IMG/VR virus record: IMGVR_UViG_2681813205_000017
Span: 1 to 13,300 of that record
DNA from: a virus
Taxonomy: Duplodnaviria > Heunggongvirae > Uroviricota > Caudoviricetes
Strand: one strand, 5' to 3'
Length of the DNA stretch: 13,300 bases
Positions 1-13,300 of this stretch are shown in pieces. The notes beneath the pieces are model-generated. The model saw only the letters and a list, made by a program, of their open reading frames with translations. It was not told the DNA's origin and made no database searches. Made by a program: the position numbers and the translations under genes. The first letter of the stretch is position 1, and every line of letters starts with the position of its first letter.

Positions 1-162
1 ATTACTGCTTCAGGTTGGTGTATTGCTTGCATCTTTCCCTTTTCATTCATAAAGATAGATCAAACAACAAAACCACCACCACCCCCCTGAAAAGGCTCAT
101 AAATAGCGAAAATCCGCGAGGTCTCCGCCCCGTAACAGGTCCATATGCCGGAAAGGACCCGC

Positions 163-184
163 AAAAAAGCCGGATTTCTCCGGC
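163..184 (-). terminator. Intrinsic terminator ending the capsid operon (GCCGGA-GAAA-UCCGGC stem-loop plus U6 on the - strand)
   Basis: 6-bp GC-rich stem with a GNRA tetraloop followed by six U on the - strand RNA, 7 bp downstream of the stop of the 191..604 gene. Confidence 0.7.
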
Positions 185-190
185 CTTGTC

Positions 191-604
191 TCAGATGGTT
201 TTCAGTATGCGATCGATGTCGCCGTCATCGCCCGGGTTTCTGCCATCGTATGCCATGCCAGCTGATACGGCTTGTGGGCTGTGCATGTCCATAAAGTTTT
301 CAAAGGCTGCGGTAAGCTCTGGTGCAACCTTCGGGCGTTCCTGCTCTATGGTCATGTTCAGGATGTTTTTAGCCGTATCAACATCAATACAAGGCACGTT
401 TGCCATTGCACGTAACAGCGGCTGATAGTCGTCAGATTCATGAAGCGCCATAATCGCATCAGCGCGCGGCTTGTCCTTCTCTTCCAGGCTGTTAAGTTGA
501 TATACGGCCTCGTAGGTTGATAAACCTCTGTCAGCCATTGCCCGCGCTTCGGCTTTAAATTTACTCGCCAGCGGTAGCGTCATGATACTTTCATTCGTTG
601 CCAT
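191..604 (-). CDS. Hypothetical protein, last gene of the capsid operon (137 aa)
   Basis: ATG at 604 preceded by a GGGGG Shine-Dalgarno. Starts 13 nt after the stop of the decoration-like gene and is followed by an intrinsic terminator. The + strand ORF 15..425 overlapping it lacks such context. Confidence 0.6.
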   Translation of the reverse strand: MATNESIMTLPLASKFKAEARAMADRGLSTYEAVYQLNSLEEKDKPRADAIMALHESDDYQPLLRAMANVPCIDVDTAKNILNMTIEQERPKVAPELTAAFENFMDMHSPQAVSAGMAYDGRNPGDDGDIDRILKTI

Positions 605-616
605 CGTTCCCCCTGC

Positions 617-952
617 TTATCGCGCCAGCGGCTGAACGGATACGCCAGAACCCGCAAAGGCGGCGCATTTTTTCGCGTCGGTGTCGGCGCTCTCAGGCCA
701 GTTAACGGCGGCAATATTGAATATCCCCGTCTTGTAGCACTGTGCTGATTTCTGCGTCGACGTGTCCACGGGGTACGAGGTCAGATAAACAGCCTTGCCA
801 GATTCCTGACCATCCCACGGCTTAAACTCGCCATTTTCCGCCAGCATCAGCGGGGTAAATTCCTGAATAACGCCAGCATCAGCAGCAAAATGTACCAGCG
901 TCGTGGATACCTGCTGACTACCTGCAAATAACTCAATGTATGGAGTGTCCAT
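617..952 (-). CDS. Head decoration protein, lambda gpD-like (111 aa)
   Basis: Translation shares recalled gpD motifs (TPLML, WDG, YK-G-F, WPE, KK-AFAG-VSV) and similar length. GGGGGG Shine-Dalgarno 5 nt upstream of the ATG. Immediately downstream of the capsid gene. Confidence 0.7.
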   Translation of the reverse strand: MDTPYIELFAGSQQVSTTLVHFAADAGVIQEFTPLMLAENGEFKPWDGQESGKAVYLTSYPVDTSTQKSAQCYKTGIFNIAAVNWPESADTDAKKCAAFAGSGVSVQPLAR

Positions 953-964
953 AGAATCCCCCCG

Positions 965-2020
965 TTAACCAATTTTGACGATAACAAATTTGCGAATATC
1001 TGCCGGTACCGGCTGCGGTGCGCTGTGCGTCTGCACGTACTCAATCGCCGGATCGCCGTCCTCAATCCAGTTTTTCGGGTAAAACATGTTTTGCGTTGCG
1101 CCCGTTCTGACCGCTTCCTGATCCATAATCGCACCATAGGCCACCAGCCCTTTATTGTTGGTGTTACCCAGGACCAGCAAATCAGGCTCAAGGAAATATT
1201 TTTCGGTGCCGTCGCTGTCAGTGTATTTGCCGGAATAGACGACAAGGGCAATATCGCCCAGATAGCCTTTAAAGCTCACCACTTCACCCAGGTTTTTACA
1301 GGCCAGTTCTGCGGCGGATTCTGAACCACGGGAAAGGTCGTACAGTTCGCGGAATTTTTTAAAGCTGCGTAACGTGCGCCATACTTCAGCGCCCATAATC
1401 ATGACGTTTGCGGGGCAATTGCCCTGATCAGCATAAAGCTCGATGTCATAGATTGGATCGTGTGTTTCTTTATCCAGCTCAGACCATTTTTTACCGTCAG
1501 CCTGTTCTATGATATTGCTTTCCGGGATCTTCCAGTCGATTTCATAGCGTTCTATGCCTTCGCCCTCAATGAGGTTTTTTCCGGTCGTTACCGCATTCAC
1601 CGCCAGCCATTCCACGCGTGCCTTAATGGCGTTTATCTGGCGGCGCATGTTGCCAGTAATCAGGCGCATACGGCGATAGGTAGGATCGTTAAGCTGTGCC
1701 GGATCTTCTCCAGCCATGCGCATGATGGTTTTTGTTGGATCGATTTCGTGTTTGGGTTTCATGTAGCCTGGTTTAATCGTGCTGGTTTCGTACCCTTTAT
1801 CGCGCTGGACCTGACTACCCACCATAGGCGAACAGAACGCTGACATCGTAACCTCTTCAATGTCCAGGGTGTCCAGAATGATGTTCTGGGTGTTGAAGGT
1901 CGCCACGTTCGGGAAAAACAGCGTGGTAAACAGCGGACTGAATTTAAATTCTGCAATATCCCCGCGATTCAGGTACGCGAAAAGCTGGTTAGTGTTAAGT
2001 GCCGTTGCTTTGCCTGCCAT
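965..2020 (-). CDS. Major capsid protein, lambda gpE family (351 aa)
   Basis: Translation aligns along its length with recalled lambda gpE (FKF-PLF, PGYMKPKHE, DPTYRRMR, LRSFK, RGSES, VVYSGKY, LVLGNT, YPKNW, GDPA, SAP). GGAGGTG Shine-Dalgarno; start overlaps the upstream stop (TAATG). Confidence 0.85.
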   Translation of the reverse strand: MAGKATALNTNQLFAYLNRGDIAEFKFSPLFTTLFFPNVATFNTQNIILDTLDIEEVTMSAFCSPMVGSQVQRDKGYETSTIKPGYMKPKHEIDPTKTIMRMAGEDPAQLNDPTYRRMRLITGNMRRQINAIKARVEWLAVNAVTTGKNLIEGEGIERYEIDWKIPESNIIEQADGKKWSELDKETHDPIYDIELYADQGNCPANVMIMGAEVWRTLRSFKKFRELYDLSRGSESAAELACKNLGEVVSFKGYLGDIALVVYSGKYTDSDGTEKYFLEPDLLVLGNTNNKGLVAYGAIMDQEAVRTGATQNMFYPKNWIEDGDPAIEYVQTHSAPQPVPADIRKFVIVKIG

Positions 2021-2226
2021 TATTCACCTCCATGCGTCTGATTCATGCCCAGCGCCGCGCGTAAATAGGCGCGGACCTGCCAGCCTGTTGACGGCTCAAC
2101 CATCGCCAGCGGATCAAGTCCTGCCGCAATGCCTGCTTTTACGTTCTGCTGGTGGCGTTCCTTGAGCGCCTTCACGATGTCGGGGCTTATGTACACCGAA
2201 ACACCGCCTTTTTTCTCTTCAGCCAT
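2020..2226 (-). CDS. Hypothetical small protein, first gene of the capsid operon (68 aa)
   Basis: ATG at 2226 with a purine-rich ribosome-binding site. Stop overlaps the capsid start codon (translational coupling). Lies ~55 nt downstream of a near-consensus sigma70 promoter. Confidence 0.6.
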   Translation of the reverse strand: MAEEKKGGVSVYISPDIVKALKERHQQNVKAGIAAGLDPLAMVEPSTGWQVRAYLRAALGMNQTHGGE

Positions 2227-2282
2227 AGTAAGAAATTCCTCTTCGACTTAAAAAATCATAACTGGATGTTTATCCAGTCCTG

Positions 2283-2310
2283 ATTATAATCAGAATTGCA
2301 TTTTATGCAA
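2283..2310 (-). promoter_or_regulatory. Sigma70-type promoter of the capsid operon (-35 TTGCAT, 16-bp spacer, -10 TATAAT on the - strand)
   Basis: On the - strand, TTGCAT (complement of 2305..2310) and TATAAT (complement of 2283..2288) with a 16-bp spacer. Both hexamers sit inside perfect palindromes (TTGCATTTTATGCAA and CTGATTATAATCAG). Confidence 0.55.
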
Positions 2311-2390
2311 TGATATTGAGTTATGTTGCAAATTATGAAATGATTATCCCGATCACGAACGCCAGTGCATCCAAAAACCTCATATGCAAA

Positions 2391-2429
2391 AGCCCGATAA
2401 GAACCCTCTGACCTTATCGGGCTTTTTTT
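2391..2429 (+). terminator. Strong stem-loop with T7 tract (AGCCCGATAAG ... CTTATCGGGCT TTTTTTT); + strand intrinsic terminator geometry, possibly bidirectional
   Basis: 11-bp stem followed by seven T on the + strand. On the - strand the same hairpin is followed by UUUUG. No + strand gene upstream, so it may act mainly as a second - strand terminator or insulator. Confidence 0.5.
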
Positions 2430-2435
2430 GGGCGC

Positions 2436-2457
2436 AAAAAAGCCGGATTGCTCCGGC
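2436..2457 (-). terminator. Intrinsic terminator after the 74-aa gene (GCCGGA-GCAA-UCCGGC plus U6)
   Basis: Same module as 163..184 and 2799..2821 but with a GCAA tetraloop; lies 20 bp downstream of the stop at 2478. Confidence 0.7.
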
Positions 2458-2477
2458 TATGTGTGCTGTGTGCTGGC

Positions 2478-2702
2478 TCAGTCTCTGATCTCTTTCAGAA
2501 ATTCTATCAATGCATCTATCTGTTCAGGATTTACCGCCAGCATTTCACCGGACAGAGCACATCTCACAAAACCATGCTGATCCTTTTCAATCAGTGCGCC
2601 CGTCTCCAGGAATGCGCGGTAATCATTGATGCTCATCGTCTCCATGTTGTCAGCATGGTATTTATCACGCTGTTTTAATATCTCATCAAATTTCATCGGC
2701 AT
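2478..2702 (-). CDS. Hypothetical protein (74 aa), monocistronic moron-like cassette
   Basis: ATG at 2702 preceded by AGAGGA. The gene is bracketed by intrinsic terminators on both sides (2799..2821 upstream, 2436..2457 downstream). Confidence 0.6.
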   Translation of the reverse strand: MPMKFDEILKQRDKYHADNMETMSINDYRAFLETGALIEKDQHGFVRCALSGEMLAVNPEQIDALIEFLKEIRD

Positions 2703-2798
2703 TGTTTTTTTCCTCTGTTGTGTCTGTTTGTTTCAGATAGTAACTATGCCTGACCGTGACGAAAACCCGGTAATGCGCCATACCGTTTCAACTGGTGC

Positions 2799-2821
2799 AA
2801 AAAAAGCCGGATTTCTCCGGC
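2799..2821 (-). terminator. Intrinsic terminator after the PerC-like gene (GCCGGA-GAAA-UCCGGC plus U7)
   Basis: GNRA-tetraloop hairpin plus U-tract on the - strand, 8 bp downstream of the stop at 2829. Confidence 0.7.
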
Positions 2822-2828
2822 TGTTTGA

Positions 2829-3104
2829 TTAGCTGTCCTGGTAATTGCGCCATATTTCATCACCAGCACCATCTATACCCATTTCGGCATAAGTGCGATC
2901 GACTGCCTTTTTCAGGTCTCCGAAATTATCCGGCGGCTCCGGTGCCCTCTGTGCCTTCCTTGAACATTCCAGCCGTCGCATCGTGATGTGATGCCGTTCC
3001 TTGTCTGTCTCCACCAGCTGCATGACTTCACCCCATCGCGCCGCCGCCCTCCGGTAAAAGCCTTTCGCCTCTAGTTCCTCCGCTATGCGGTCATGTACCA
3101 TCGT
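2829..3104 (-). CDS. PerC-family transcriptional regulator (91 aa)
   Basis: N-terminal AEELEAKGFYRRAAARWGEVM matches the recalled PerC/Pch signature (LE-G-WRRAA-RW). The likely start is the ATG at 3104 (GAGGGGG Shine-Dalgarno, 8 nt after the SSB stop) rather than the ORF-track start at 3221, which would overlap ssb by 110 nt. Confidence 0.65.
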   Translation of the reverse strand, partial: TMVHDRIAEELEAKGFYRRAAARWGEVMQLVETDKERHHITMRRLECSRKAQRAPEPPDNFGDLKKAVDRTYAEMGIDGAGDEIWRNYQDS

Positions 3105-3111
3105 CACCCCC

Positions 3112-3522
3112 TCAGAACGAAATATCATCACCGTAAGGGTCATCGCCTCCCGCTGGTGGCTGATTACCCTGTGTGCCTGTGGTTTTGCGTCTGTTCCCGC
3201 CAGGACGTGCCGCACGGGCACTGATTACGCTGTCTGCAATAACCTGATACCCCTGCCGTGTTTCCCCGTTCTGTCCGGTCCACTGGCTTACCTGCATCGT
3301 GCCGGATACGCTGGCAACATCGCCTTTTTGATGTTTAGCCAGGAAATCGGCCTGTTTGCCAAATGCGATAACCGATAACCATAACGTCGCCTGTCCGTCA
3401 TGTGCCTGGCTGCATGGCAACGATACCGCCATACGCGCCAGAGTCATCGGTGTGCCCTTGCTGGTCTGTTTTACCTGCGGGTCGTCCACCAGCCGCCCGT
3501 AAGCGGCTATCTGTGCCGTCAT
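3112..3522 (-). CDS. ssb: Single-stranded DNA-binding protein (136 aa)
   Basis: OB-fold core resembles E. coli SSB (W-x-x-V-x-x-FGK ... KG ... W), followed by a Gly/Gln/Pro-rich linker and an acidic C-terminal tail DDPYGDDISF (E. coli SSB ends DDDIPF). GGAGAGGTG Shine-Dalgarno; ATGA overlap with the upstream gene. Confidence 0.85.
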   Translation of the reverse strand: MTAQIAAYGRLVDDPQVKQTSKGTPMTLARMAVSLPCSQAHDGQATLWLSVIAFGKQADFLAKHQKGDVASVSGTMQVSQWTGQNGETRQGYQVIADSVISARAARPGGNRRKTTGTQGNQPPAGGDDPYGDDISF

Positions 3523-3770
3523 AATTCCACCTCTCCGGTTTTAACGTTGATGGTTGTTACCTGTTCCGCTTCGGCAATCTCCCGTTCTGTCAGCGTGGCA
3601 AAGTTTGCCGCCGCCGTGGTCATGAATGCGCTTATCAGGTCGGGATGTTCCTTCGCGTATCCTTCCCGCGTGTGGCGGTCTATCGTTCTGATTGCCACCT
3701 TTAAGGTGTGCTCAGTCATGTCTAACGCTTTATATTTTGGCTCTGTTCTGTCTCTGCGTTTTTGGGTCAT
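3519..3770 (-). CDS. Hypothetical protein (83 aa from the ATG at 3770; alternative start at 3800 gives 93 aa)
   Basis: ORF translationally coupled to ssb (ATGA overlap). The ATG at 3770 has a GAGAGG ribosome-binding site and avoids overlap with the iterons. Confidence 0.5.
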   Translation of the reverse strand: MTQKRRDRTEPKYKALDMTEHTLKVAIRTIDRHTREGYAKEHPDLISAFMTTAAANFATLTEREIAEAEQVTTINVKTGEVEL

Positions 3771-3782
3771 TTCTCGCAACCT

Positions 3783-3973
3783 CTCACTTTTTCGCCTCAC
3801 TTTTTCAAGCGTCTCACTTCGTCGCAGCTGGGATTTTCGGTTTTTCTATGTGTGTGTTTCATAAGTATTTTTTTACCCCTCACTTTTGAGGATGTATACA
3901 GGTCGAAAAGTGAGGGAGAGCAGGCTAATTTTGGCCCTCTTTCTATCCACCTCGCTTTTGCTCCTCACTTTTA
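3783..3973. repeat. Putative replication origin: six CTCACTT(TT) iterons flanking an AT-rich stretch
   Basis: CTCACTT copies at 3783, 3796, 3813 and 3879, an inverted copy at 3906..3915 (AAAAGTGAGG) and another at 3963, plus a degenerate copy near 3950. AT-rich segment 3836..3876. Lies directly 3' of the helicase gene. Confidence 0.55.
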
Positions 3974-5371
3974 TAGCGGCGCTACATCATCCCCATCGAT
4001 ACGAATAACCCCATCTTTTTCCAGCTTGTACAGCCAGCGCCGGAAGTTTTTCATTTCATACCCCAGCTTTTTCATGTCATCACGTAACAGCGGGATCGTG
4101 CACTTGTCGCCGTTCTGTGTGCGTGAACGGATGCACCCCCATAGCGCGGTATGGTTTTCCGTCTTGTTCCCTGCCTCCTCGATGCGCTCCAGTTCAACAG
4201 GAGGGCGCGGATCATCCACCACCACCAGCGACGTGATTAATTCACCGTCAGCGTCGGTAAAAAGCTCCACCACGCGTAAGTCATATGCGGCTTCTTTGAG
4301 TTCCTCCGCGTCCTTCATTTTGGTGCATGAGATAACCAGCGCTTCGCTTCCTGCGTCCTCCCTGCGTATCCGGTATTCAGCATCCAGCGAAGCACGAAAT
4401 GCACTGGAACCGCGCGCGCCTTTCGTCTCATCCTTGCCGGAATGGTGAACCACCAGCACCGTGGCCCCTGTGCGTCGTTTCAGTTCGTCACAACCACGGA
4501 TAAACGCCCCCATATCACGGGAATCATTTTCATCATTCCCACCAAAGCAACGCGCCAGCGTATCCAGAATAATCATGCGTACAGGTTTACCCGTTTCCCG
4601 CTCCACCTGACGGGCAGCGATAACCATTTCATCAACATCAAGCGGGGCAGCCGGAAAGATGGGGCGGTTTACCAGATACAGATTTTTCACCTGCTCATCG
4701 TGCACAACCTCCCAGGCTTTTACACGACGCGGAACACCTATACCGCCTTCACCAACCACATAGAGAACCGCACCATGTGCAACCCTGCGGCCTCCCCACT
4801 GGCGACCAGTGGCAACATGGCACGCCCACGATCCGGCAAGGAATGATTTATAGGACCCGCTAGCCCCGTATATGCTGCATAGCGATACCGCCGGAATAAT
4901 CCCCTTAACCACGTAATCCAGTTGCGTGTCGTATCCGGTAGATCCAACGCTCATCGGTAGCGTGGTTTTTCGCTGGTGGTTTTTTTCTTCCGCCGGCTCT
5001 TTCCCGCGCACCCGTTCCAGGTATTCGCGCCAGTTCTCCCGCATATGGCTGTGCATCCCTTCGGGGTAATAATTCGCATCAGTTACACCCGCCGCCGCCA
5101 GCTTGTGCGCAATGGCATTAATATTTGATGGCCTGATGTGGCCTGCCTTGTACAGCCGGACACAATAGCGCCCCTCGTCGATGATTCTCAGGTCTGCCAG
5201 TTCATCCAGTTGATCATCAGCCAGCACAACGGGAGGCACATTATCGCCAGCCAGTCGCCCGTCCTGTTCCTGCCACTGTTTCGCATGTGCCCAGGCATCA
5301 CTACCCGCAAAAATAATGACTTCGGTCATCTTGTCGTAAGGCTGTTTTTTTAAGTTCGGTGCGCTTTTCAT
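3971..5371 (-). CDS. Replication initiator / replicative helicase, RecA-fold ATPase (RepA / AAA_25-like), 466 aa
   Basis: Walker A-like GASGSYKS, Walker B-like MIILDTLARCF, and VLVVHHSGKD typical of RepA/DnaB-like helicases of satellites and plasmids. ATGA overlap with the upstream gene; iterons immediately downstream. Confidence 0.75.
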   Translation of the reverse strand: MKSAPNLKKQPYDKMTEVIIFAGSDAWAHAKQWQEQDGRLAGDNVPPVVLADDQLDELADLRIIDEGRYCVRLYKAGHIRPSNINAIAHKLAAAGVTDANYYPEGMHSHMRENWREYLERVRGKEPAEEKNHQRKTTLPMSVGSTGYDTQLDYVVKGIIPAVSLCSIYGASGSYKSFLAGSWACHVATGRQWGGRRVAHGAVLYVVGEGGIGVPRRVKAWEVVHDEQVKNLYLVNRPIFPAAPLDVDEMVIAARQVERETGKPVRMIILDTLARCFGGNDENDSRDMGAFIRGCDELKRRTGATVLVVHHSGKDETKGARGSSAFRASLDAEYRIRREDAGSEALVISCTKMKDAEELKEAAYDLRVVELFTDADGELITSLVVVDDPRPPVELERIEEAGNKTENHTALWGCIRSRTQNGDKCTIPLLRDDMKKLGYEMKNFRRWLYKLEKDGVIRIDGDDVAPL

Positions 5372-5667
5372 TTCTTGCCCCTGAATCCGTTAATCATGGT
5401 TTTCAGCTTCTGGATGTTTGCCCGTGCCCTGGCGTTGCTGGTGGGCACGTTATGCGGCGCGGTCTGTACCAGAGAAAAATCACGCCGGAACTGATAAACA
5501 GGCATCACGCAATCATATTCGTAACCTTCACGGCGGTAGGTTACGCGCCGTTCTTCCACGCCCTTAATCATTACCGTGCCGCCGTACTGGTCGCGGTAAA
5601 TATCACCGCGCGTAAATTTAGGGTGAGTGTTGCCACTGGCAGTTAAGCCAGAATATTTAAGTTTCAT
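5368..5667 (-). CDS. Hypothetical protein (99 aa), translationally coupled to the helicase gene
   Basis: ATG at 5667; stop overlaps the helicase start (ATGA). Basic, Tyr/Arg-rich; no recognisable motif. Confidence 0.55.
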   Translation of the reverse strand: MKLKYSGLTASGNTHPKFTRGDIYRDQYGGTVMIKGVEERRVTYRREGYEYDCVMPVYQFRRDFSLVQTAPHNVPTSNARARANIQKLKTMINGFRGKK

Positions 5668-5672
5668 TATTT

Positions 5673-5906
5673 TTATTCTCCGGTGTGCTGTTCTTTATAT
5701 CTGTCGTGCAATAGATCTATTTCTTGCAGTTCCATTATTACAGGATCAAGAAGCGTTATTAATGCCGTGGCAATTCTTGATTTTTGTTTGTCGCGTTCAT
5801 TGTCGCCAAGTGTTTCAAGCCATATGCGCAATATTTCCAGCATGTTTTCACTGTGAGAAAGTGCAAGAAATGCGCGGTCTATTGTTTGGTGGTAAATATC
5901 ACGCAT
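5673..5906 (-). CDS. Hypothetical protein (77 aa)
   Basis: ATG at 5906 overlaps the stop of the upstream gene (ATGCGTGA). Part of the same coupled gene chain. Confidence 0.55.
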   Translation of the reverse strand: MRDIYHQTIDRAFLALSHSENMLEILRIWLETLGDNERDKQKSRIATALITLLDPVIMELQEIDLLHDRYKEQHTGE

Positions 5907-6357
5907 GGCTTACATCCTCAGGAAATTTTCTTCTATAACGCGCCTCTGCCACATATTCCGCATAATCGGCGGCGATATTCAGTACATCAAGCCCCGTTGA
6001 TTTATATTCTCTCGTGGAAAGTAAGAAAAAAGCCGCTCTAATAAGTTCTGGCATTGACGAAAGCGCATCAGCCGCATCATCAGGAACGCCGGAAAATTCC
6101 TGTTTCAGGGAATTAAAACGATCATCACGCATAACCCCCCCCCCATTTTCACAATCAGCAACAAGAATATTTTTAGCGTCATTCAGCGACCGCGTTGCGG
6201 TGTATCGGATACATTCCAGGGCGAATAGTGTGTATTCTTCCCTTTCTTCCCTTTCTTCCTTTTGTGCAAGCTCTGCTGTGCATTCAATATCAATAAGCGC
6301 GTGCATCAGCGTAGTGAGTGCGGCGGCGGCTGCGTCCGGTGTGGTTTTATTGCACAT
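5899..6357 (-). CDS. Hypothetical acidic protein (153 aa from the ATG at 6357) containing an in-frame G10 tract
   Basis: ATG at 6357 has a GGAGGGG Shine-Dalgarno 3 nt upstream. The ORF-track start at 6411 has no ribosome-binding site and would overlap the upstream gene by 65 nt. Contains an EEREEREE repeat and the Gly-Gly-Gly encoded by the C10 run at 6135..6144. Confidence 0.55.
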   Translation of the reverse strand: MCNKTTPDAAAAALTTLMHALIDIECTAELAQKEEREEREEYTLFALECIRYTATRSLNDAKNILVADCENGGGVMRDDRFNSLKQEFSGVPDDAADALSSMPELIRAAFFLLSTREYKSTGLDVLNIAADYAEYVAEARYRRKFPEDVSHA

Positions 6358-6577
6358 GTACCCCTCCGCATTTTTTTTCGTTAGAAATAAGCGTTCTTCT
6401 TTCCTGTTCATCGATCAGGAATACGCAGACCTCACCGCTAAGGCGTTTAAGTAAGCCGATGATTGCCCCTGATTCGCTGTCGGTCATCATGCCTGGGTAA
6501 TCCTCTGCCAGTGCGCAAATAACTTCGATTTGGTGGGCGCGTTCTACTGCCTGTTGTAGTGTGATTTCCTGGCTCAT
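6347..6577 (-). CDS. Hypothetical protein (76 aa)
   Basis: ATG at 6577 with a GGGGG ribosome-binding site; ATGA overlap with the candidate upstream ORF. Contains an A8 tract on the coding strand. Confidence 0.55.
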   Translation of the reverse strand: MSQEITLQQAVERAHQIEVICALAEDYPGMMTDSESGAIIGLLKRLSGEVCVFLIDEQERRTLISNEKKCGGVHVQ

Positions 6578-6774
6578 AAGCCTACCCCCTGACGAATACG
6601 GGCAGCGAATACCATCACGCAGCCAGCCGGGGATTGCAGGCGTGCTTCCTGTTCGCTGGTGGCCTCAATGGTAATCACGCGCGGTTGTGCAGTGCTCAGG
6701 GCGATAAAACGCCAAATGTATTTATTCAGGTTGTGCGAGTCCCGCCCTTGCGGGTGTGTGGTATGATTTCTCAT
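6574..6774 (-). CDS. Candidate small ORF (66 aa), putative first gene of the early operon
   Basis: Not listed separately in the ORF track; it is the C-terminal end of the spurious 381-aa ORF. ATG at 6774 with a GAGG ribosome-binding site 6 nt upstream; stop overlaps the next start (ATGA); ~100 nt downstream of the predicted - strand promoter. Confidence 0.4.
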   Translation of the reverse strand: MRNHTTHPQGRDSHNLNKYIWRFIALSTAQPRVITIEATSEQEARLQSPAGCVMVFAARIRQGVGL

Positions 6775-6872
6775 AGCTACCTCGATACTCTCGTTATCGT
6801 TGGTGGTTAGAAGCCCCGTTACTGCTCCTACAGTGCGGGGTTTCGTCGTTTCTGCACCTTGCATTAACAAGG

Positions 6873-6950
6873 TGTAAGTAACTTTATTTATAGGTGGCTT
6901 ACATGTCAATGCTTTTATGTAAGACTTTTTATGTGTATATTGTCTTACAC
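6873..6950. promoter_or_regulatory. Divergent switch region: four TGTAAG / CTTACA operator half-sites overlapping a - strand TTGACA-N17-TAAAGT promoter
   Basis: Half-sites at 6873 (TGTAAG), 6898 (CTTACA), 6919 (TGTAAG) and 6945 (CTTACA), alternating in orientation. On the - strand a perfect -35 TTGACA (complement of 6904..6909) and a -10 TAAAGT (complement of 6881..6886) with a 17-bp spacer. Confidence 0.5.
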
Positions 6951-6970
6951 TTTCATTGAGAGGATTACAG

Positions 6971-7276
6971 ATGGCTACAGGTTCAAAAAACGCAAAATCA
7001 CAATCACTGACAGCTCGGATCCCGCATGATGTTATTGAAGGCATGGAATCCGTAAAACTGGACGGTGAAAGCAACGCCGGATTCATAGTAACCGCCATGC
7101 GCGGTGAAATCGCCCGCCGCCAGGCAGAAGGAAGCGGAGAAAACCTCCTGATTTCTTCGCTCAATGCACTGGCGCAGGTGGAAAAACTCGGAATCAAAGC
7201 CGCCGAGGAGATCGGGCAGCTCGTCACTGTCGCACGTGAAGAACTCCAGCGCCGCAAGACTAAAGAACCAGAGTAA
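6971..7276 (+). CDS. Putative transcriptional regulator, candidate repressor of the early operon (101 aa)
   Basis: ATG at 6971 with a GAGAGGA Shine-Dalgarno. Divergent from the - strand operon and immediately downstream of the operator cluster. Function is inferred from position only. Confidence 0.55.
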   Translation: MATGSKNAKSQSLTARIPHDVIEGMESVKLDGESNAGFIVTAMRGEIARRQAEGSGENLLISSLNALAQVEKLGIKAAEEIGQLVTVAREELQRRKTKEPE

Positions 7277-7318
7277 TCACCATCAGCGCCGTGGTGTAAG
7301 GTATTACGGCGCATTGCT

Positions 7319-7507
7319 ATGCAGGACAACACAATGACCGATAAAGAATTGACCAAAACATTATCACCGGCACGGAAAAGACGGCGCAGAAAGATAGAGC
7401 ATGAATCAGAAAGATTCGCGCCATGTGCTTTTGCCCTTGAGCAATTCCTTAAAGAGTACAGGGAAAAGCGCTCATTGCAGGTATGGCAACGAACTGAACC
7501 AGACTGA
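7319..7507 (+). CDS. Small basic protein (62 aa; alternative start at 7334)
   Basis: ORF following the regulator on the same strand, with a Lys/Arg-rich stretch (ARKRRRRK). Followed by an intrinsic terminator at 7603..7630. Confidence 0.4.
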   Translation: MQDNTMTDKELTKTLSPARKRRRRKIEHESERFAPCAFALEQFLKEYREKRSLQVWQRTEPD

Positions 7508-7602
7508 TAGCATTGCCCACCAGCCTGATAGCGACTATCATTGCCGTTCTTATGTTTGGGATCACACACACAAACGGCGCAGCGGGTTATCTGTTCAGAA
7601 AG

Positions 7603-7630
7603 GCGGCTCCATTTCGGGGCCGCTTTTTTT
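7603..7630 (+). terminator. Intrinsic terminator for the + strand regulator genes
   Basis: GCGGCUCC ... GGGGCCGC stem (one G-U wobble) with a 5-nt loop, followed by seven T. Confidence 0.6.
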
Positions 7631-7776
7631 ATGTCTGAAAAACCCCAATTTTGTTGTTTTTCAGTTTCACCAGGGCGAACGAATCCCCGCCCACGTTCTG
7701 GCGTATATTCAATCTTCATGGTTATAGCTCTGTGTTCAGATGATTGATGTGTGGCGGCTGCGTGCCGCCAGCGTGA

Positions 7777-7965
7777 TTAATGAACTGCCTTGCAGCTATC
7801 CTTCCAGGCCAGAACCTCGGATAAAGACCAGCCAACGGAACGACCGCCAAGTTTACGACGTGATGGGAATTGTCCGGCCTTTTCCAGGCGGTAGCGACAC
7901 GTACGGCTAAGGCCGGTTAGTTTTTCGCATTCTTTTTCACGTATAAACCGATCAGTGCTTAACAC
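7777..7965 (-). CDS. alpA: AlpA-family phage regulator / excisionase-like protein (62 aa from GTG at 7965)
   Basis: CEKLTGLSRTCRYRLEKAGQFP ... GGRSVGWSLSEVLAWK matches the AlpA helix-turn-helix signature. The ORF track starts at a TTG at 8046, but a GTG at 7965 has an AGGGGGG Shine-Dalgarno and gives the typical AlpA length. Confidence 0.75.
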   Translation of the reverse strand: MLSTDRFIREKECEKLTGLSRTCRYRLEKAGQFPSRRKLGGRSVGWSLSEVLAWKDSCKAVH

Positions 7966-8238
7966 TATTGCCCCCCTTTCGTTTCTTAAAGAGTCATCAG
8001 GTGTCTTATTGTGTCGTATTGTTCCCGCTAGAGTGATGAATGGCAAATATTGAGGATGTATGATTTACAGAAAATGAAACAGTAAGAATAAAATCTTTTA
8101 AATTCATGTTAATACAAAGGCATAAAATATTGTTTCATGCCTTTTTTCTCACGCGTTAAAGCGTTATTCGCTAATGTATAAAAAAACAGTCACACAAATA
8201 AAATCAGTCACTTATAAACCTGTGTACTTTTTCGCCTC

Positions 8239-8288
8239 TTGTTCGTGGTTGTTCCACGTTGTTTCACATTGTTCGCCGTTGTATCTGT
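8239..8288. repeat. Five tandem 10-bp units each beginning TTGT (helically phased) between int and alpA
   Basis: TTGTTCGTGG TTGTTCCACG TTGTTTCACA TTGTTCGCCG TTGTATCTGT, an exact 10-bp period. Confidence 0.6.
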
Positions 8289-8330
8289 GTGCTTATCCAG
8301 TATGCGCATACTGAAAAAACACGAAAAAAA

Positions 8331-9548
8331 TTATTTTCTTCTGGCTGCTGGTAGTGCGGTTACGTTTTCATGTGTTCCCGCCAGTATCCCTAACCGCTCC
8401 ATCCACATATCCAGCGCATTGCGTTTAGCATCCAGATAACGGGAATGATTATAAACTCGCTGCATTCCTGGCATCTGGTGGCCTGTAAGCTGCTCCACGA
8501 CATGCGGATCAACGCCTAAATCGTTCAGCATGGTTGTAAAGGTGCGCCGGATGTCATGCAGTGACCAGTGAGGATGATTAAGCCTCCTGTGCGCTAATCT
8601 TCCATACTGCGATACGCTGGCCTCCTGTTTCACTTCCCCCAGCAATAAGCCCGTGTGCCTGTTCTGCTCCACCAGCTGCGTGACGAACGGCAGTATTGCT
8701 TCCGGTATGGGCCGGAATATTGCCACCTTCGTTTTGCTGTGTTCTTTCGGCACGGTCCAGAGCATTTCGGTAAAATCCCACTCGCTGATCTCCGATAACC
8801 TCAGTTCTACCGTCCGGCATCCGAACACAATCAGGAGGCGGATTAACGCGATGTAGTAGGGGGAGAATATTTTTTTGTCCAGTGCCTGCAATAATTCGCC
8901 CAGTTCTTTGGTGCTTAAGACACGCTCGCTTATATCCGGTTTTTTCCCAACGTCCGCCACACTCATATCATCAAGAACGTTGCTGATTGCATAGCGCCGC
9001 CTCCGGCAGAACTTAAGCGCCTGTTTGCACGTCTGTAGCAAGAATCCGGCAGTAACAGGCGTTCGCTTTGCCACCTGGTCAAAACAGGCCAGCCAGTGCC
9101 GTAGCTCGCATTTATCCAGCGGCATAGCACCAATGTGCTGTATTACGTGATTATTAAGTCGCCTTTTCAGGGCGATATAATCCACGCGGTTTTCCTTTAC
9201 GTAATACTCAAGCCAGTAGGTGAGCGCATCGCCAACCGTTACGGGCTTTAACGCTTCCTGTACGGTGTAATTCATCTCATGACGTGGATTTTTCCCCTCA
9301 GCCAGCCATGTGCGACACTGTGCGGCTTTTTCCCTGGCTGCTTTCAGGCTCAGATCAGGATAACTTCCCAGCTTAATGCGTTCGGGTCGTGTCTCCCTTC
9401 CCGTTCCGGCCCTGTATGTGAAATACCAGGTCAATTTCCCTGATGTTAAATATTTCACGCTCAGGTTTCCGCCATCACTATAAAACGTGTTTTTCTCCGC
9501 TGGCTTACCATGAAGTTTCCTTAGCAAGGTATCGCTCAGTTTGTTCAT
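8331..9548 (-). CDS. int: Tyrosine integrase, P4-like family
   Basis: N-terminal arm-binding-type motif (KPAEKNTFYSDGGNLSVKYL), C-terminal catalytic region with HDIRRT and VYNHSRY (R, H-x-x-R, Y). Start is probably the ATG at 9548 (MNKLSD...); the ORF track uses a GTG at 9560. It is the outermost island gene next to the junction. Confidence 0.85.
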   Translation of the reverse strand: MNKLSDTLLRKLHGKPAEKNTFYSDGGNLSVKYLTSGKLTWYFTYRAGTGRETRPERIKLGSYPDLSLKAAREKAAQCRTWLAEGKNPRHEMNYTVQEALKPVTVGDALTYWLEYYVKENRVDYIALKRRLNNHVIQHIGAMPLDKCELRHWLACFDQVAKRTPVTAGFLLQTCKQALKFCRRRRYAISNVLDDMSVADVGKKPDISERVLSTKELGELLQALDKKIFSPYYIALIRLLIVFGCRTVELRLSEISEWDFTEMLWTVPKEHSKTKVAIFRPIPEAILPFVTQLVEQNRHTGLLLGEVKQEASVSQYGRLAHRRLNHPHWSLHDIRRTFTTMLNDLGVDPHVVEQLTGHQMPGMQRVYNHSRYLDAKRNALDMWMERLGILAGTHENVTALPAARRK

Positions 9549-9584
9549 TGCTCTGCTCACGTTTTACCCCCTCTTTACGAAAAA

Positions 9585-9650
9585 GTGACTACACCAGTGA
9601 CTACACCGATCGTTGCACAAAGGGCTACAACGTGAAACAAGCTGGAACAA
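9585..9650. promoter_or_regulatory. int upstream region with a 12-bp tandem repeat (GTGACTACACC x2) and four 10-bp phased units ending ACAA; candidate arm-type or regulator binding sites
   Basis: GTGACTACACCA GTGACTACACCG at 9585..9608. CGTTGCACAA AGGGCTACAA CGTGAAACAA GCTGGAACAA at 9611..9650, which is the reverse complement motif of the array at 8239..8288. Confidence 0.45.
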
Positions 9651-9757
9651 GGAAAATCACAAATCTGTTGATAATCAAAAACATAATGCACAGCCTGAAA
9701 CATTATGAAACAGCAAAAAACACTAAATGATAAAATGCTGTTATTCTTAACCCGCTG

Positions 9758-10642
9758 GTGCAACACATGGTCCGCTGGCGAGTGCCGCGTGTACTGGCGG
9801 TGTCGATTTTGATGACCATCATCGTGATGGCGATGGTGTTGCTATTAGCTTATCTGGGTTCCGCGCTCAACGAGTTGACGCGGACGTTACCGCAATATCG
9901 CAACTCTATTATGACGCCGCTGCAAGCTCTTGAGCCGTTGTTGCAACGCGTAGGGATTGACGTCTCAGTTGACCAGCTGGCGCATTACATTGATCCGAAC
10001 GCGGCGATGACGTTGCTCACCAACTTATTGACGCAGTTATCTAATGCCATGTCATCAATATTTTTATTGCTGCTGACGGTGCTGTTTATGCTGCTCGAAG
10101 TGCCACAATTGCCCGGAAAATTTCAGCAAATGATGGCGCGTCCGGTTGAAGGGATGGCGGCGATTCAACGTGCAATTGACAGTGTTTCTCATTATCTGGT
10201 GCTGAAAACAGCCATCAGCATCATCACCGGCCTGGTCGCCTGGGCGATGCTCGCCGCACTCGATGTTCGCTTCGCTTTTGTCTGGGGATTGCTGGCCTTT
10301 GCGCTTAATTACATCCCTAATATTGGTTCAGTTCTCGCGGCAATCCCCCCTATCGCTCAGGTACTGGTGTTTAATGGCTTCTACGAAGCGTTGCTGGTGC
10401 TGGCGGGATATCTGCTGATTAATCTGGTCTTCGGCAATATTCTGGAGCCGCGCATCATGGGACGTGGGCTGGGGCTTTCCACATTGGTGGTATTTTTGTC
10501 GTTGATTTTTTGGGGATGGTTGTTAGGACCGGTGGGTATGCTGCTTTCCGTGCCGTTAACAATTATTGTCAAAATTGCGCTTGAACAAACAGCGGGAGGT
10601 CAAAGCATCGCCGTTCTGTTAAGCGATCTCAATAAAGAGTGA
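9758..10642 (+). CDS. tqsA: AI-2 exporter TqsA (YdgG), 5'-truncated by the island insertion (294 codons retained)
   Basis: Translation matches recalled E. coli TqsA from its internal [15 protein letters not shown] segment to the C-terminal SDLNKE. An in-frame TAA at 9731..9733 lies directly upstream and there is no native N-terminus or ribosome-binding site. The ORF-track start is an internal GTG. Confidence 0.8.
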
Positions 10643-10662
10643 CGGCCTCCGCAGAGGCCGTC
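10641..10662. terminator. Shared stem-loop between convergent tqsA and pntB (GACGGCCTC-cgca-GAGGCCGTC)
   Basis: 9-bp perfect GC-rich inverted repeat lying exactly between the two stop codons. Confidence 0.55.
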
Positions 10663-10666
10663 AGGG

Positions 10667-12058
<1,392 letters not shown>

Positions 12059-12065
12059 TTACCCC

Positions 12066-13300
<1,235 letters not shown>

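Follow-up and report, generated by a model that had tools for sequence, protein, structure and literature searches.

A chain of small coupled genes upstream of the replicase of an EcCICFT073-type island, probably the head of its early operon

The gene chain upstream of the helicase

The 13,300-nucleotide stretch of DNA analysed here, hereafter the window (positions 1 to 13,300 of the IMG/VR virus record IMGVR_UViG_2681813205_000017), carries an element that, judged by its gene content, is a phage-inducible chromosomal island (PICI) of the EcCICFT073 type inserted in the Escherichia coli gene tqsA. Ahead of the island helicase gene lie five small co-directional open reading frames (ORFs) on the minus strand, orfA to orfE, which occupy positions 5368–6774 and run directly into the helicase gene (Table 1). 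These genes probably constitute the promoter-proximal half of the early, or replication, operon of the island, because the same gene order is present at 87–97% identity in EcCICFT073, the genes are under purifying selection and their junctions are conserved. A preliminary description of this DNA had reported five ORFs here, and their coordinates stand; orfC encodes 152 residues rather than 153, the stop codon having been counted, and is composed of two fused modules, designated Cn and Cc, which in most relatives are two genes. A longer, 170-residue reading of orfC is also open, from an ATG at 6411.

The ORFs are not chance readings, since all five match PHROG families (E = 1e-27 to 8e-68), their substitutions relative to other alleles cluster at third codon positions and dN/dS is low: 0.17 for A, 0.32 for Cc, 0.34 for D and 0.28 for E; the values for the helicase and SSB are 0.09 and 0.15. 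On these comparisons they are genuine genes, maintained by purifying selection but under a weaker constraint than the replicase.

A Shine–Dalgarno-like purine run is located 5–10 nt upstream of every start in the chain, which bears out the earlier claim that each gene has its own ribosome-binding site. The genes had also been described as linked by overlaps of the ATGA or ATGCGTGA type throughout. Such overlaps are indeed found between orfA and orfB (ATGA), between orfC and orfD (ATGCGTGA) and between orfE and the helicase gene, where the orfE stop overlaps the helicase start in an ATGA, but orfB and orfC share an 11-nt overlap, ATGTGCAATAA, and orfD and orfE are separated by a 5-nt spacer (TAA-AAATA-ATG) without overlap. 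These junctions are well preserved: the ATGA between E and the replicase and the spacer between D and E are each kept in 76 of 78 related island loci, and the Cc/D junction, compared in 77 related loci, is ATGCGTGA in 52 and TAATATG in 23. Across 83 related loci the architecture reads A, optional B, Cn and Cc (fused or split), D, E and then a helicase or primase, with D, E and the replicase nearly always together. No terminator-like site is present inside the chain on its own strand. The earlier view of the element as a satellite, and of the ORFs as one tightly coupled unit upstream of its replicase, is upheld.

A sigma-70-like promoter-like site precedes orfA and is accompanied by TGTAAG/CTTACA repeats, including TGTAAGAC-N16-GTCTTACA, which are candidate operators. 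Across the same region, a 381-codon frame is open on the minus strand (6574–7719), antisense to a divergent YlcI/YnfO-family gene; it crosses the promoter region and ends in orfA, and the equivalent region of a relative is labelled by PGAP as an incomplete 'icd-like protein' pseudogene. This frame was rejected as a gene: its third codon positions fall on those of the YlcI/YnfO gene on the plus strand, there is no codon-position bias in 7508–7719 and the frame is broken in the Sakai island Sp7, so that it is best regarded as an antisense shadow.

EcCICFT073 is the prototype of the Gram-negative, E. coli PICIs and carries its chain at NC_004431, 1380852–1382244 (C_RS30125 to C_RS06980, including C1493). 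Protein identity between the window and this island amounts to 97% for A, 97% for B, 88% for Cn, 90% for Cc, 87% for D and 94% for E (C1493), and reaches 98% for SSB and 96% for the capsid protein.

Table 1. Positions of the chain, its sequence signals and neighbouring genes in the window
Feature	Position	Strand	Remarks
orfA, 66 aa	6574–6774	minus	first gene of the chain
orfB, 76 aa	6347–6577	minus	
orfC, 152 aa	5899–6357	minus	Cn + Cc modules
Cn, N-terminal module of orfC, ~75 aa	6133–6357	minus	phrog_5146; pI 4.5
Cc, C-terminal module of orfC, 77 aa	5899–6132	minus	from its own ATG in ATGCGTGAT; phrog_24341 at 1.4e-40; pI 4.8
orfD, 77 aa	5673–5906	minus	
orfE, 99 aa	5368–5667	minus	
Helicase, RepA family (AAA_25), 466 aa	3971–5371	minus	island replicase, coupled to orfE
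G10 run (C10 on plus strand)	6135–6144	minus (coding)	joins Cn to Cc in frame; lies where the Cc Shine–Dalgarno would be
A8 run (T8 on plus strand)	6371–6378	minus	orfB 3' end; A7 would fuse orfB in frame to orfC
Sigma-70-like promoter-like site, TTGACA-17-TAAAGT	6909–6881	minus	10/12 consensus matches; ~107 nt upstream of orfA ATG
Candidate operator repeats TGTAAG/CTTACA	6869–6953		half-sites at ~6873, 6898, 6918 and 6944; flank and abut the -35 hexamer
YlcI/YnfO-family gene, 106 aa	6956–7276	plus, divergent	NCBIfam NF041551 at 6.5e-20; phrog_6522
alpA	7777–7965	minus	Phage_AlpA helix-turn-helix, Pfam PF05930 at 1.5e-16
int	8331–9560		Phage_integrase + Arm-DNA-bind_3
tqsA pieces	9758–10642 (related RefSeq locus L001: 349–492 and 15446–16351)		short 5' fragment split from the rest by the island
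PerC-family regulator	2829–3221		downstream of SSB; PF06069 at 1.2e-42
Homologues of the lambda E (major capsid) and D (decoration) proteins	617–2020		counterparts in EcCICFT073

A homologue of RgdR adjoining the replicase

The last gene of the chain, orfE, encodes a basic protein (pI 10.2) of the DUF4222 family (PF13973 at 1.6e-24). It is 81% identical to RgdR (ECs1581), with 86% positives over 99 of 99 residues, which exceeds the 77% similarity that delimits the family, and 94% identical to C1493 of CFT073; the RGD at residues 20–22 (R20 G21 D22, in ...KFTRGDIY...) and K35 are both kept. Aligned in this manner, orfE is an RgdR homologue. ECs1581 and C1493 activate the LEE1 promoter of the enterocyte effacement locus (LEE), and with it type III secretion, and act as repressors of motility (Flockhart et al. 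2012, PMC3378721). The binding of RgdR to DNA is not sequence-specific, its activity needs residue 20 of the RGD motif and K35, and single residue changes are known to alter it; deletion of O-island 51 (OI-51) lowers colonisation of sheep, and RgdR is also found in strains without LEE (PMC3378721). By extrapolation from ECs1581 and C1493, the orfE allele may act on LEE1 and motility as well. Fillol-Salom et al. found RgdR in every E. coli PICI that they analysed and list it among the accessory genes (PMC6092414). A scan of one genome per species for RgdR returned only Shigella flexneri and Escherichia albertii and no wider context. In the AlphaFold2 model of orfE, residues 20–70 are predicted with a local confidence score (pLDDT) of about 90, and a five-stranded small barrel is followed by a long basic helix.

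There are five settings, each with its own initiator architecture, in which the replication initiator gene begins within or right beside the end of a DUF4222 gene. The DUF4222 gene is followed by the AAA_25 helicase in the window, by a DUF927 protein in Sp7/EcCIEDL933, by a D5_N/Pox_D5 primase in CFT073, by an O-like protein with HTH_36 and DnaD_N domains in phage vB_EcoS-733R5 and 80 related prophage loci, and by a protein with HTH_36 and Phg_2220_C domains in Klebsiella phage KpnBHU6. In the two phages the DUF4222 gene is an unannotated 59-residue ORF on the plus strand that overlaps the start of the O-like replication gene (3980–4159 of locus L083 for Escherichia phage vB_EcoS-733R5, and 295–474 of L168 for KpnBHU6); the deposited vB_EcoS-733R5 record has an antisense ORF annotated there instead.

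Small acidic modules between orfA and orfE

The preliminary description had recognised none of the five products, and this still applies to orfB, orfC and orfD, which have no assigned function in the databases and literature searched, but not to orfE, the RgdR homologue, or to orfA, which is Icd-like. Neither Pfam, NCBIfam, PADLOC nor PDB yielded a match for orfB, orfC or orfD; sequence searches of the PDB were without a significant match for all five chain proteins, and PADLOC-DB had none for the five or for their neighbours at E values up to 0.1.

The product of orfB (phrog_1478 at 1.2e-27) is acidic, with a pI of 4.8, and the module is optional: roughly one in four of the 83 related loci have it. 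The orfD product (phrog_2196 at 3.5e-42) is also acidic (pI 5.1) and helical; its 519 database clusters are all unnamed, and it adjoins RgdR in nearly all related loci. The centre of Cn is hypervariable, and Cc can have other N-terminal partners, for example in protein P0373. Within Cn, at window positions 6230–6260, there is an in-frame tandem repeat, KEEREEREEY as against KEEREEY in several alleles, which differs in the copy number of a 9-nt unit. The AlphaFold2 model of orfC is weak (mean pLDDT 58, linker below 50) and suggests that Cn may form a long helical hairpin (helices 7–36 and 40–70), followed by a disordered linker and a helical Cc.

A tblastn search of 50,697 deposited phage records, in which orfB was not included, returned no match for orfC or orfD. 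When 1.8 billion cluster representatives were searched exhaustively by HMMER with a B~Cn~Cc fusion protein, only 66 clusters were returned, all of them small stand-alone modules except a few that are slightly longer, such as P0373; the long matches P0370, P0387 and P0411 were rejected as read-through or repeat artefacts. Paralogy among the A, B, Cn, Cc, D and E families was likewise rejected, profile–profile probabilities in hhalign being no higher than 1.2%.

Homopolymer runs and gene fusion

The two modules of orfC meet at a G run that is slippage-prone, and fused and split states are both tolerated. Among 80 IMG/VR loci and L001 (RefSeq) the run is G7 in 22 cases, G8 in 22, G9 in 13, G10 in 4, the window included, and G11 in one; across loci it spans G6 to G11, and interrupted versions that fix the split frame are also present. 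A run of G7 or G10 generates a fused Cn~Cc protein. With G8 or G11, a TGA ends Cn within ATGCGTGA, where it overlaps the start codon of Cc; the C/D junction has the same motif. With G9 or G12, Cn extends 12 codons into Cc. A change in run length only fuses or separates Cn and Cc, the latter keeping its own ATG in every frame.

More than one run length is found in 8 of 12 multi-member haplotypes with identical 300-nt flanks, although some of the length differences may be homopolymer sequencing errors. Exact matches in approximately 650 complete RefSeq genomes that have the site comprise 256 with G7, 155 with G8, 146 with G9 and 21 with G10, so that roughly half are fused (G7/G10) and half split (G8/G9). 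Even O111 strains with the same match identity over a 1.5-kb block differ, G9 in one case and G10 in another. The run shares with phase-variable loci an in-frame homopolymer and a length polymorphism among near-identical sequences. The two states are reflected in annotation: PGAP calls one gene for G7/G10 and two for G8, and labels at least one G9 copy 'frameshifted', and PHROGs contains separate families for the orfC halves and for the fusion.

The second homopolymer, at the 3' end of orfB, is A8 in 20 loci and A7 in one. B~Cn~Cc fusion proteins of 217–221 residues are on record (P0243, found on 52 contigs, and P0260). These natural fusions hint that B, Cn and Cc may act together, and lend some support to the earlier suggestion that the coupled products work together, as in a complex.

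The Icd-like protein

The first gene of the chain, orfA, encodes a basic protein (pI 10.7) that matches the Icd-like family NF033153 of NCBIfam at 69.1 bits, against a cut-off of 25, and phrog_6196 at 2e-44, a family that PHROGs labels 'transcriptional repressor'. Icd of phage P1, whose immI operon has the order c4-icd-ant, inhibits cell division. On the strength of the profile homology, a division-inhibiting function is predicted for orfA; the literature searched contained no experiment on the inhibition of cell division by an Icd homologue of a PICI.

The island and its neighbouring genes

The host DNA in the window is E. coli chromosome, with pntA, pntB and a 5'-truncated tqsA at the right side. 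The island displays three features of PICIs: a tyrosine integrase gene followed by alpA at one end, a replication module of its own (RepA/AAA_25 helicase and SSB), transcribed in the same direction, without tail or lysis genes, and an island-specific attachment site, as tqsA (ydgG) is interrupted and partial tqsA fragments are found at both ends in L001. The window ends inside the island and the far end is cut, so the statement on tail and lysis genes leans on a related complete island of ~10.7 kb in strain 97-3250, which contains capsid E/D homologues and a small terminase and is devoid of tail and lysis genes. The island of ED1a was placed between ydgD and ydgG, which corresponds to the tqsA site (PMC3378721). 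TqsA is the exporter of autoinducer 2, and strains with islands at tqsA may be without functional TqsA. DNA related to the island is present in ~1,900 of 5,426 complete E. coli genomes, about a third.

The AlpA protein is 94% identical to that of EcCICFT073. In PICIs, AlpA is an activator of the island genes and cycle that is induced by the helper phage (PMC6092414), and helper-phage-dependent induction, replication and transfer have been shown in the literature for EcCICFT073 and EcCIEDL933. The YlcI/YnfO-family gene, whose divergent arrangement is also seen in EcCICFT073 and Sp7, is likely to encode a ribbon-helix-helix regulator of the intergenic promoters. On the 3' side of this gene and of a 62-residue ORF (7319–7507), a G+C-rich hairpin with a T run is located at 7599–7634 on the plus strand; it would end the divergent plus-strand unit just short of a head-on meeting with alpA.

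Downstream of the chain follow the RepA/AAA_25 helicase, a 93-residue ORF, SSB, a PerC homologue, a capsid protein of the lambda E type and a decoration protein of the lambda D type. LEE activation has been reported for some PICI PerC homologues, and the island accordingly holds two potential virulence regulators. EcCICFT073 is reportedly packaged in phage-sized capsids despite its own capsid E/D genes.

Interpretation and alternative explanations

As the first half of the early operon, the chain would be read from one mRNA by coupled re-initiation, from orfA through the helicase. The basic Icd-like protein would probably delay division of the host cell, and the four acidic helical modules, B, Cn, Cc and D, would probably act together as small binding proteins. 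RgdR, with its small Tudor/SH3-like barrel and basic C-terminal helix, would be made in a fixed ratio with the replicase and would most likely serve the replication or early transcription of the island; on this view LEE and flagella would be affected incidentally, through non-specific binding of the protein to DNA or polymerase.

Several observations weigh against this interpretation or parts of it. The promoter is a consensus match only, and such sites are no commoner in the region than in shuffled sequence. An AlpA-dependent reporter has been fused to 'ORF3', and the identity of this ORF could not be checked. The homology of orfA to P1 Icd is visible to the profile model only: a tblastn search of the deposited phages with orfA returned one satellite-sized record of 16.5 kb and no P1-type phage, and an Rfam search for a C4- or IsrK-like RNA gave no family over threshold anywhere in the window, and nothing C4- or IsrK-like even at E values up to 5. 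None of the papers searched describes experimental work with A, B, Cn, Cc or D, whose roles we infer. As regards RgdR, the five replication contexts come from few lineages, the linkage may reflect co-inheritance rather than function, and the published view is that of an accessory virulence regulator and not of a life-cycle gene (PMC6092414).

This published view provides an alternative explanation of its own, namely that RgdR and its neighbours are accessory cargo which tunes virulence and motility of the host and has no role in the life cycle of the island. The activation of type III secretion and repression of motility by RgdR and C1493, and the impaired sheep colonisation upon deletion of OI-51 (PMC3378721), speak for such cargo, and Fillol-Salom et al. 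place RgdR among the accessory genes (PMC6092414). Yet the same survey found RgdR in every E. coli PICI analysed (PMC6092414), the gene also occurs where there is no LEE to regulate (PMC3378721), its ATGA coupling to the replicase is preserved in 76 of 78 loci, and DUF4222 genes hold the same position in lambdoid phages of Klebsiella and E. coli. Moreover, accessory genes are usually located at the ends of islands and not within the replication operon. Accessory cargo is thus a possibility that falls distinctly short of being probable. The converse proposal, that the primary job of RgdR is tied to the replication module and that the LEE1 and flagellar effects are secondary, is made because DUF4222 adjoins five initiator types and the ATGA overlap is so widely kept; it too is less likely than not. 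Likewise doubtful is a joint scheme in which DUF4222/RgdR would be a core accessory replication factor, a Tudor-like barrel with a basic helix produced in a fixed ratio with the initiator that follows, perhaps tethering the origin or replicase to DNA or to RNA polymerase, with the LEE and flagellar effects as spill-over and the Cn–Cc G run as a slippage-driven switch between fused and split states.

That the G run is a contingency (phase-variation) switch, the fused Cn~Cc and the two separate proteins differing in their effects on helper or host, appears unlikely. Lengths from G7 to G10 in complete genomes, different lengths within identical 300-nt flanks, the divergence of the O111 strains (G9 versus G10) and the interrupted runs that fix the split frame would all fit such a switch. 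However, as Cc can be made from its own ATG at every run length, nothing would be switched off; the G-rich stretch is perhaps kept as the Cc Shine–Dalgarno, in which case slippage would be incidental, and sequencing errors at the homopolymer could account for some of the differences.

The preliminary description had proposed the chain as the best candidate in the window for an undescribed system, possibly directed at the helper phage, and had also envisaged a toxin–antitoxin-like pair. The chain is not an undescribed system specific to the window, because it is a conserved part of described PICIs, 87–97% identical to that of EcCICFT073 and in the same order in EcCIEDL933/Sp7, and one of its products has been characterised experimentally; on the other hand, the five products did not all prove to be well-characterised housekeeping proteins. 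An undescribed system of helper-phage interference or anti-phage defence, made up of the chain or of its B–C–D part, is improbable. Three products without a known family, restricted to satellites and absent from deposited phages (orfB was not searched there), a mosaic B/Cn region with optional and hypervariable modules of the kind seen in conflict genes, and dN/dS values above that of the helicase are what such a system might look like, but PADLOC has no match, the proteins are 75-residue acidic helical modules without an enzymatic, nucleotide-binding or membrane domain, and the chain occupies the same place across islands with different packaging modules and replicases. In addition, interference by EcCICFT073 is assigned in the literature to Rpp. 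The gene for Rpp presumably lies outside the early chain of that island. The toxin–antitoxin pair would consist of orfA, a basic Icd-like division inhibitor, and orfB, its acidic neutralising partner. A basic protein (pI 10.7) followed across an ATGA overlap by an acidic one (pI 4.8), together with the inhibition of cell division by P1 Icd, would suit this arrangement; nevertheless most of the related loci with orfA lack orfB, Pfam, NCBIfam and PADLOC yield no match to a toxin or antitoxin family, the pair does not have the make-up of a type II module, and both genes belong to a long operon and not to an autoregulated unit of two genes, all of which makes a pair of this kind very improbable indeed. 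In the sequences analysed nothing points to a defence or toxin–antitoxin system.

Islands of this type, or parts of them, reside in about one third of complete E. coli genomes, are mobilised at high frequency and influence virulence genes via RgdR and PerC, and six small modules at the head of their replication operon are not known to have been studied in the island life cycle. If RgdR worked mainly for the replication or early transcription of the island, the activation of type III secretion that it brings about in enterohaemorrhagic E. coli would be a by-product of satellite biology, and the link between island and virulence would have to be read differently. The fused/split polymorphism also matters for annotation, as pipelines label one common state 'frameshifted'.

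Comparison with known systems

Contingency loci that undergo slipped-strand phase variation resemble orfC in having a G run of 7–11 in frame whose length differs between near-identical sequences, but they switch expression off, whereas a length change in the orfC run would only split or fuse two modules. P1 Icd, the founding member of NF033153, and orfA are both small proteins encoded first in an operon and translationally coupled to the next gene; in immI, however, a C4 RNA lies upstream and an antirepressor downstream, whereas orfA is followed by orfB, and the context is therefore not of the P1 type. In satellite P4 the left (early) operon has small genes, such as epsilon and orf151, ahead of the alpha primase–helicase. 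These small early genes precede the satellite replicase in one transcript. The likeness to the chain is positional only, and no sequence relationship between the chain and the P4 left operon was detected. Only AlpA, Pri-Rep and Int are distantly homologous between PICIs and P4 (Fillol-Salom et al., PMC6092414).

EcCIEDL933, also known as Sp7 of Sakai, CP-933C or O-island 51, is a capsid-forming PICI (cf-PICI) with a diverged chain in the same order. Identity to the window is 53% for the Icd-like protein, 28% between orfD and ECs1580 and 81% for RgdR; a B-like gene, ECs1579, is present, orfC is missing and there is one extra small gene. The orfE product and ECs1581 have the same length of 99 residues, the same DUF4222 domain and the same position overlapping the replicase start, and most of the 19 substitutions in orfE are located either within its first 19 residues or in the C-terminal helix.

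EcCICFT073 matches the window in order and strand from int, alpA, the divergent YlcI/YnfO gene and the Icd-like gene through B, Cn, Cc, D and DUF4222 to the replicase, and again downstream in SSB, PerC, lambda-E-like capsid and decoration genes. Three differences are seen. EcCICFT073 sits between roxA and phoQ, whereas the island in the window is in tqsA; its Cn and Cc are split (G8), Cc being a separate 73-residue gene, whereas those of the window are fused (G10); and its replicase is a D5-type primase instead of a RepA/AAA_25 helicase, with only the N-terminal ~120 residues in common (62% identity between the N-terminal 122 residues of the window helicase and the N-terminus of the primase). 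The N-terminal ~120 residues of the helicase are also common to the Sp7 replicase, the remainder of each replicase belonging to a different family; this shared module lies near 5000–5371 in the window, in the first ~370 nt of the gene, and at 5242–5620 of L167 and 4601–4960 of L002. From these alignments, the replicases seem to have arisen by exchange of domains behind one shared N-terminal module, which rgdR always precedes. The early operon of described PICIs and the regulator RgdR are thus already known, and to these the present analysis adds, as a modest novelty, that orfC is polymorphic between fused and split states, that B~Cn~Cc fusions exist and that DUF4222 genes are consistently coupled to replication initiators.

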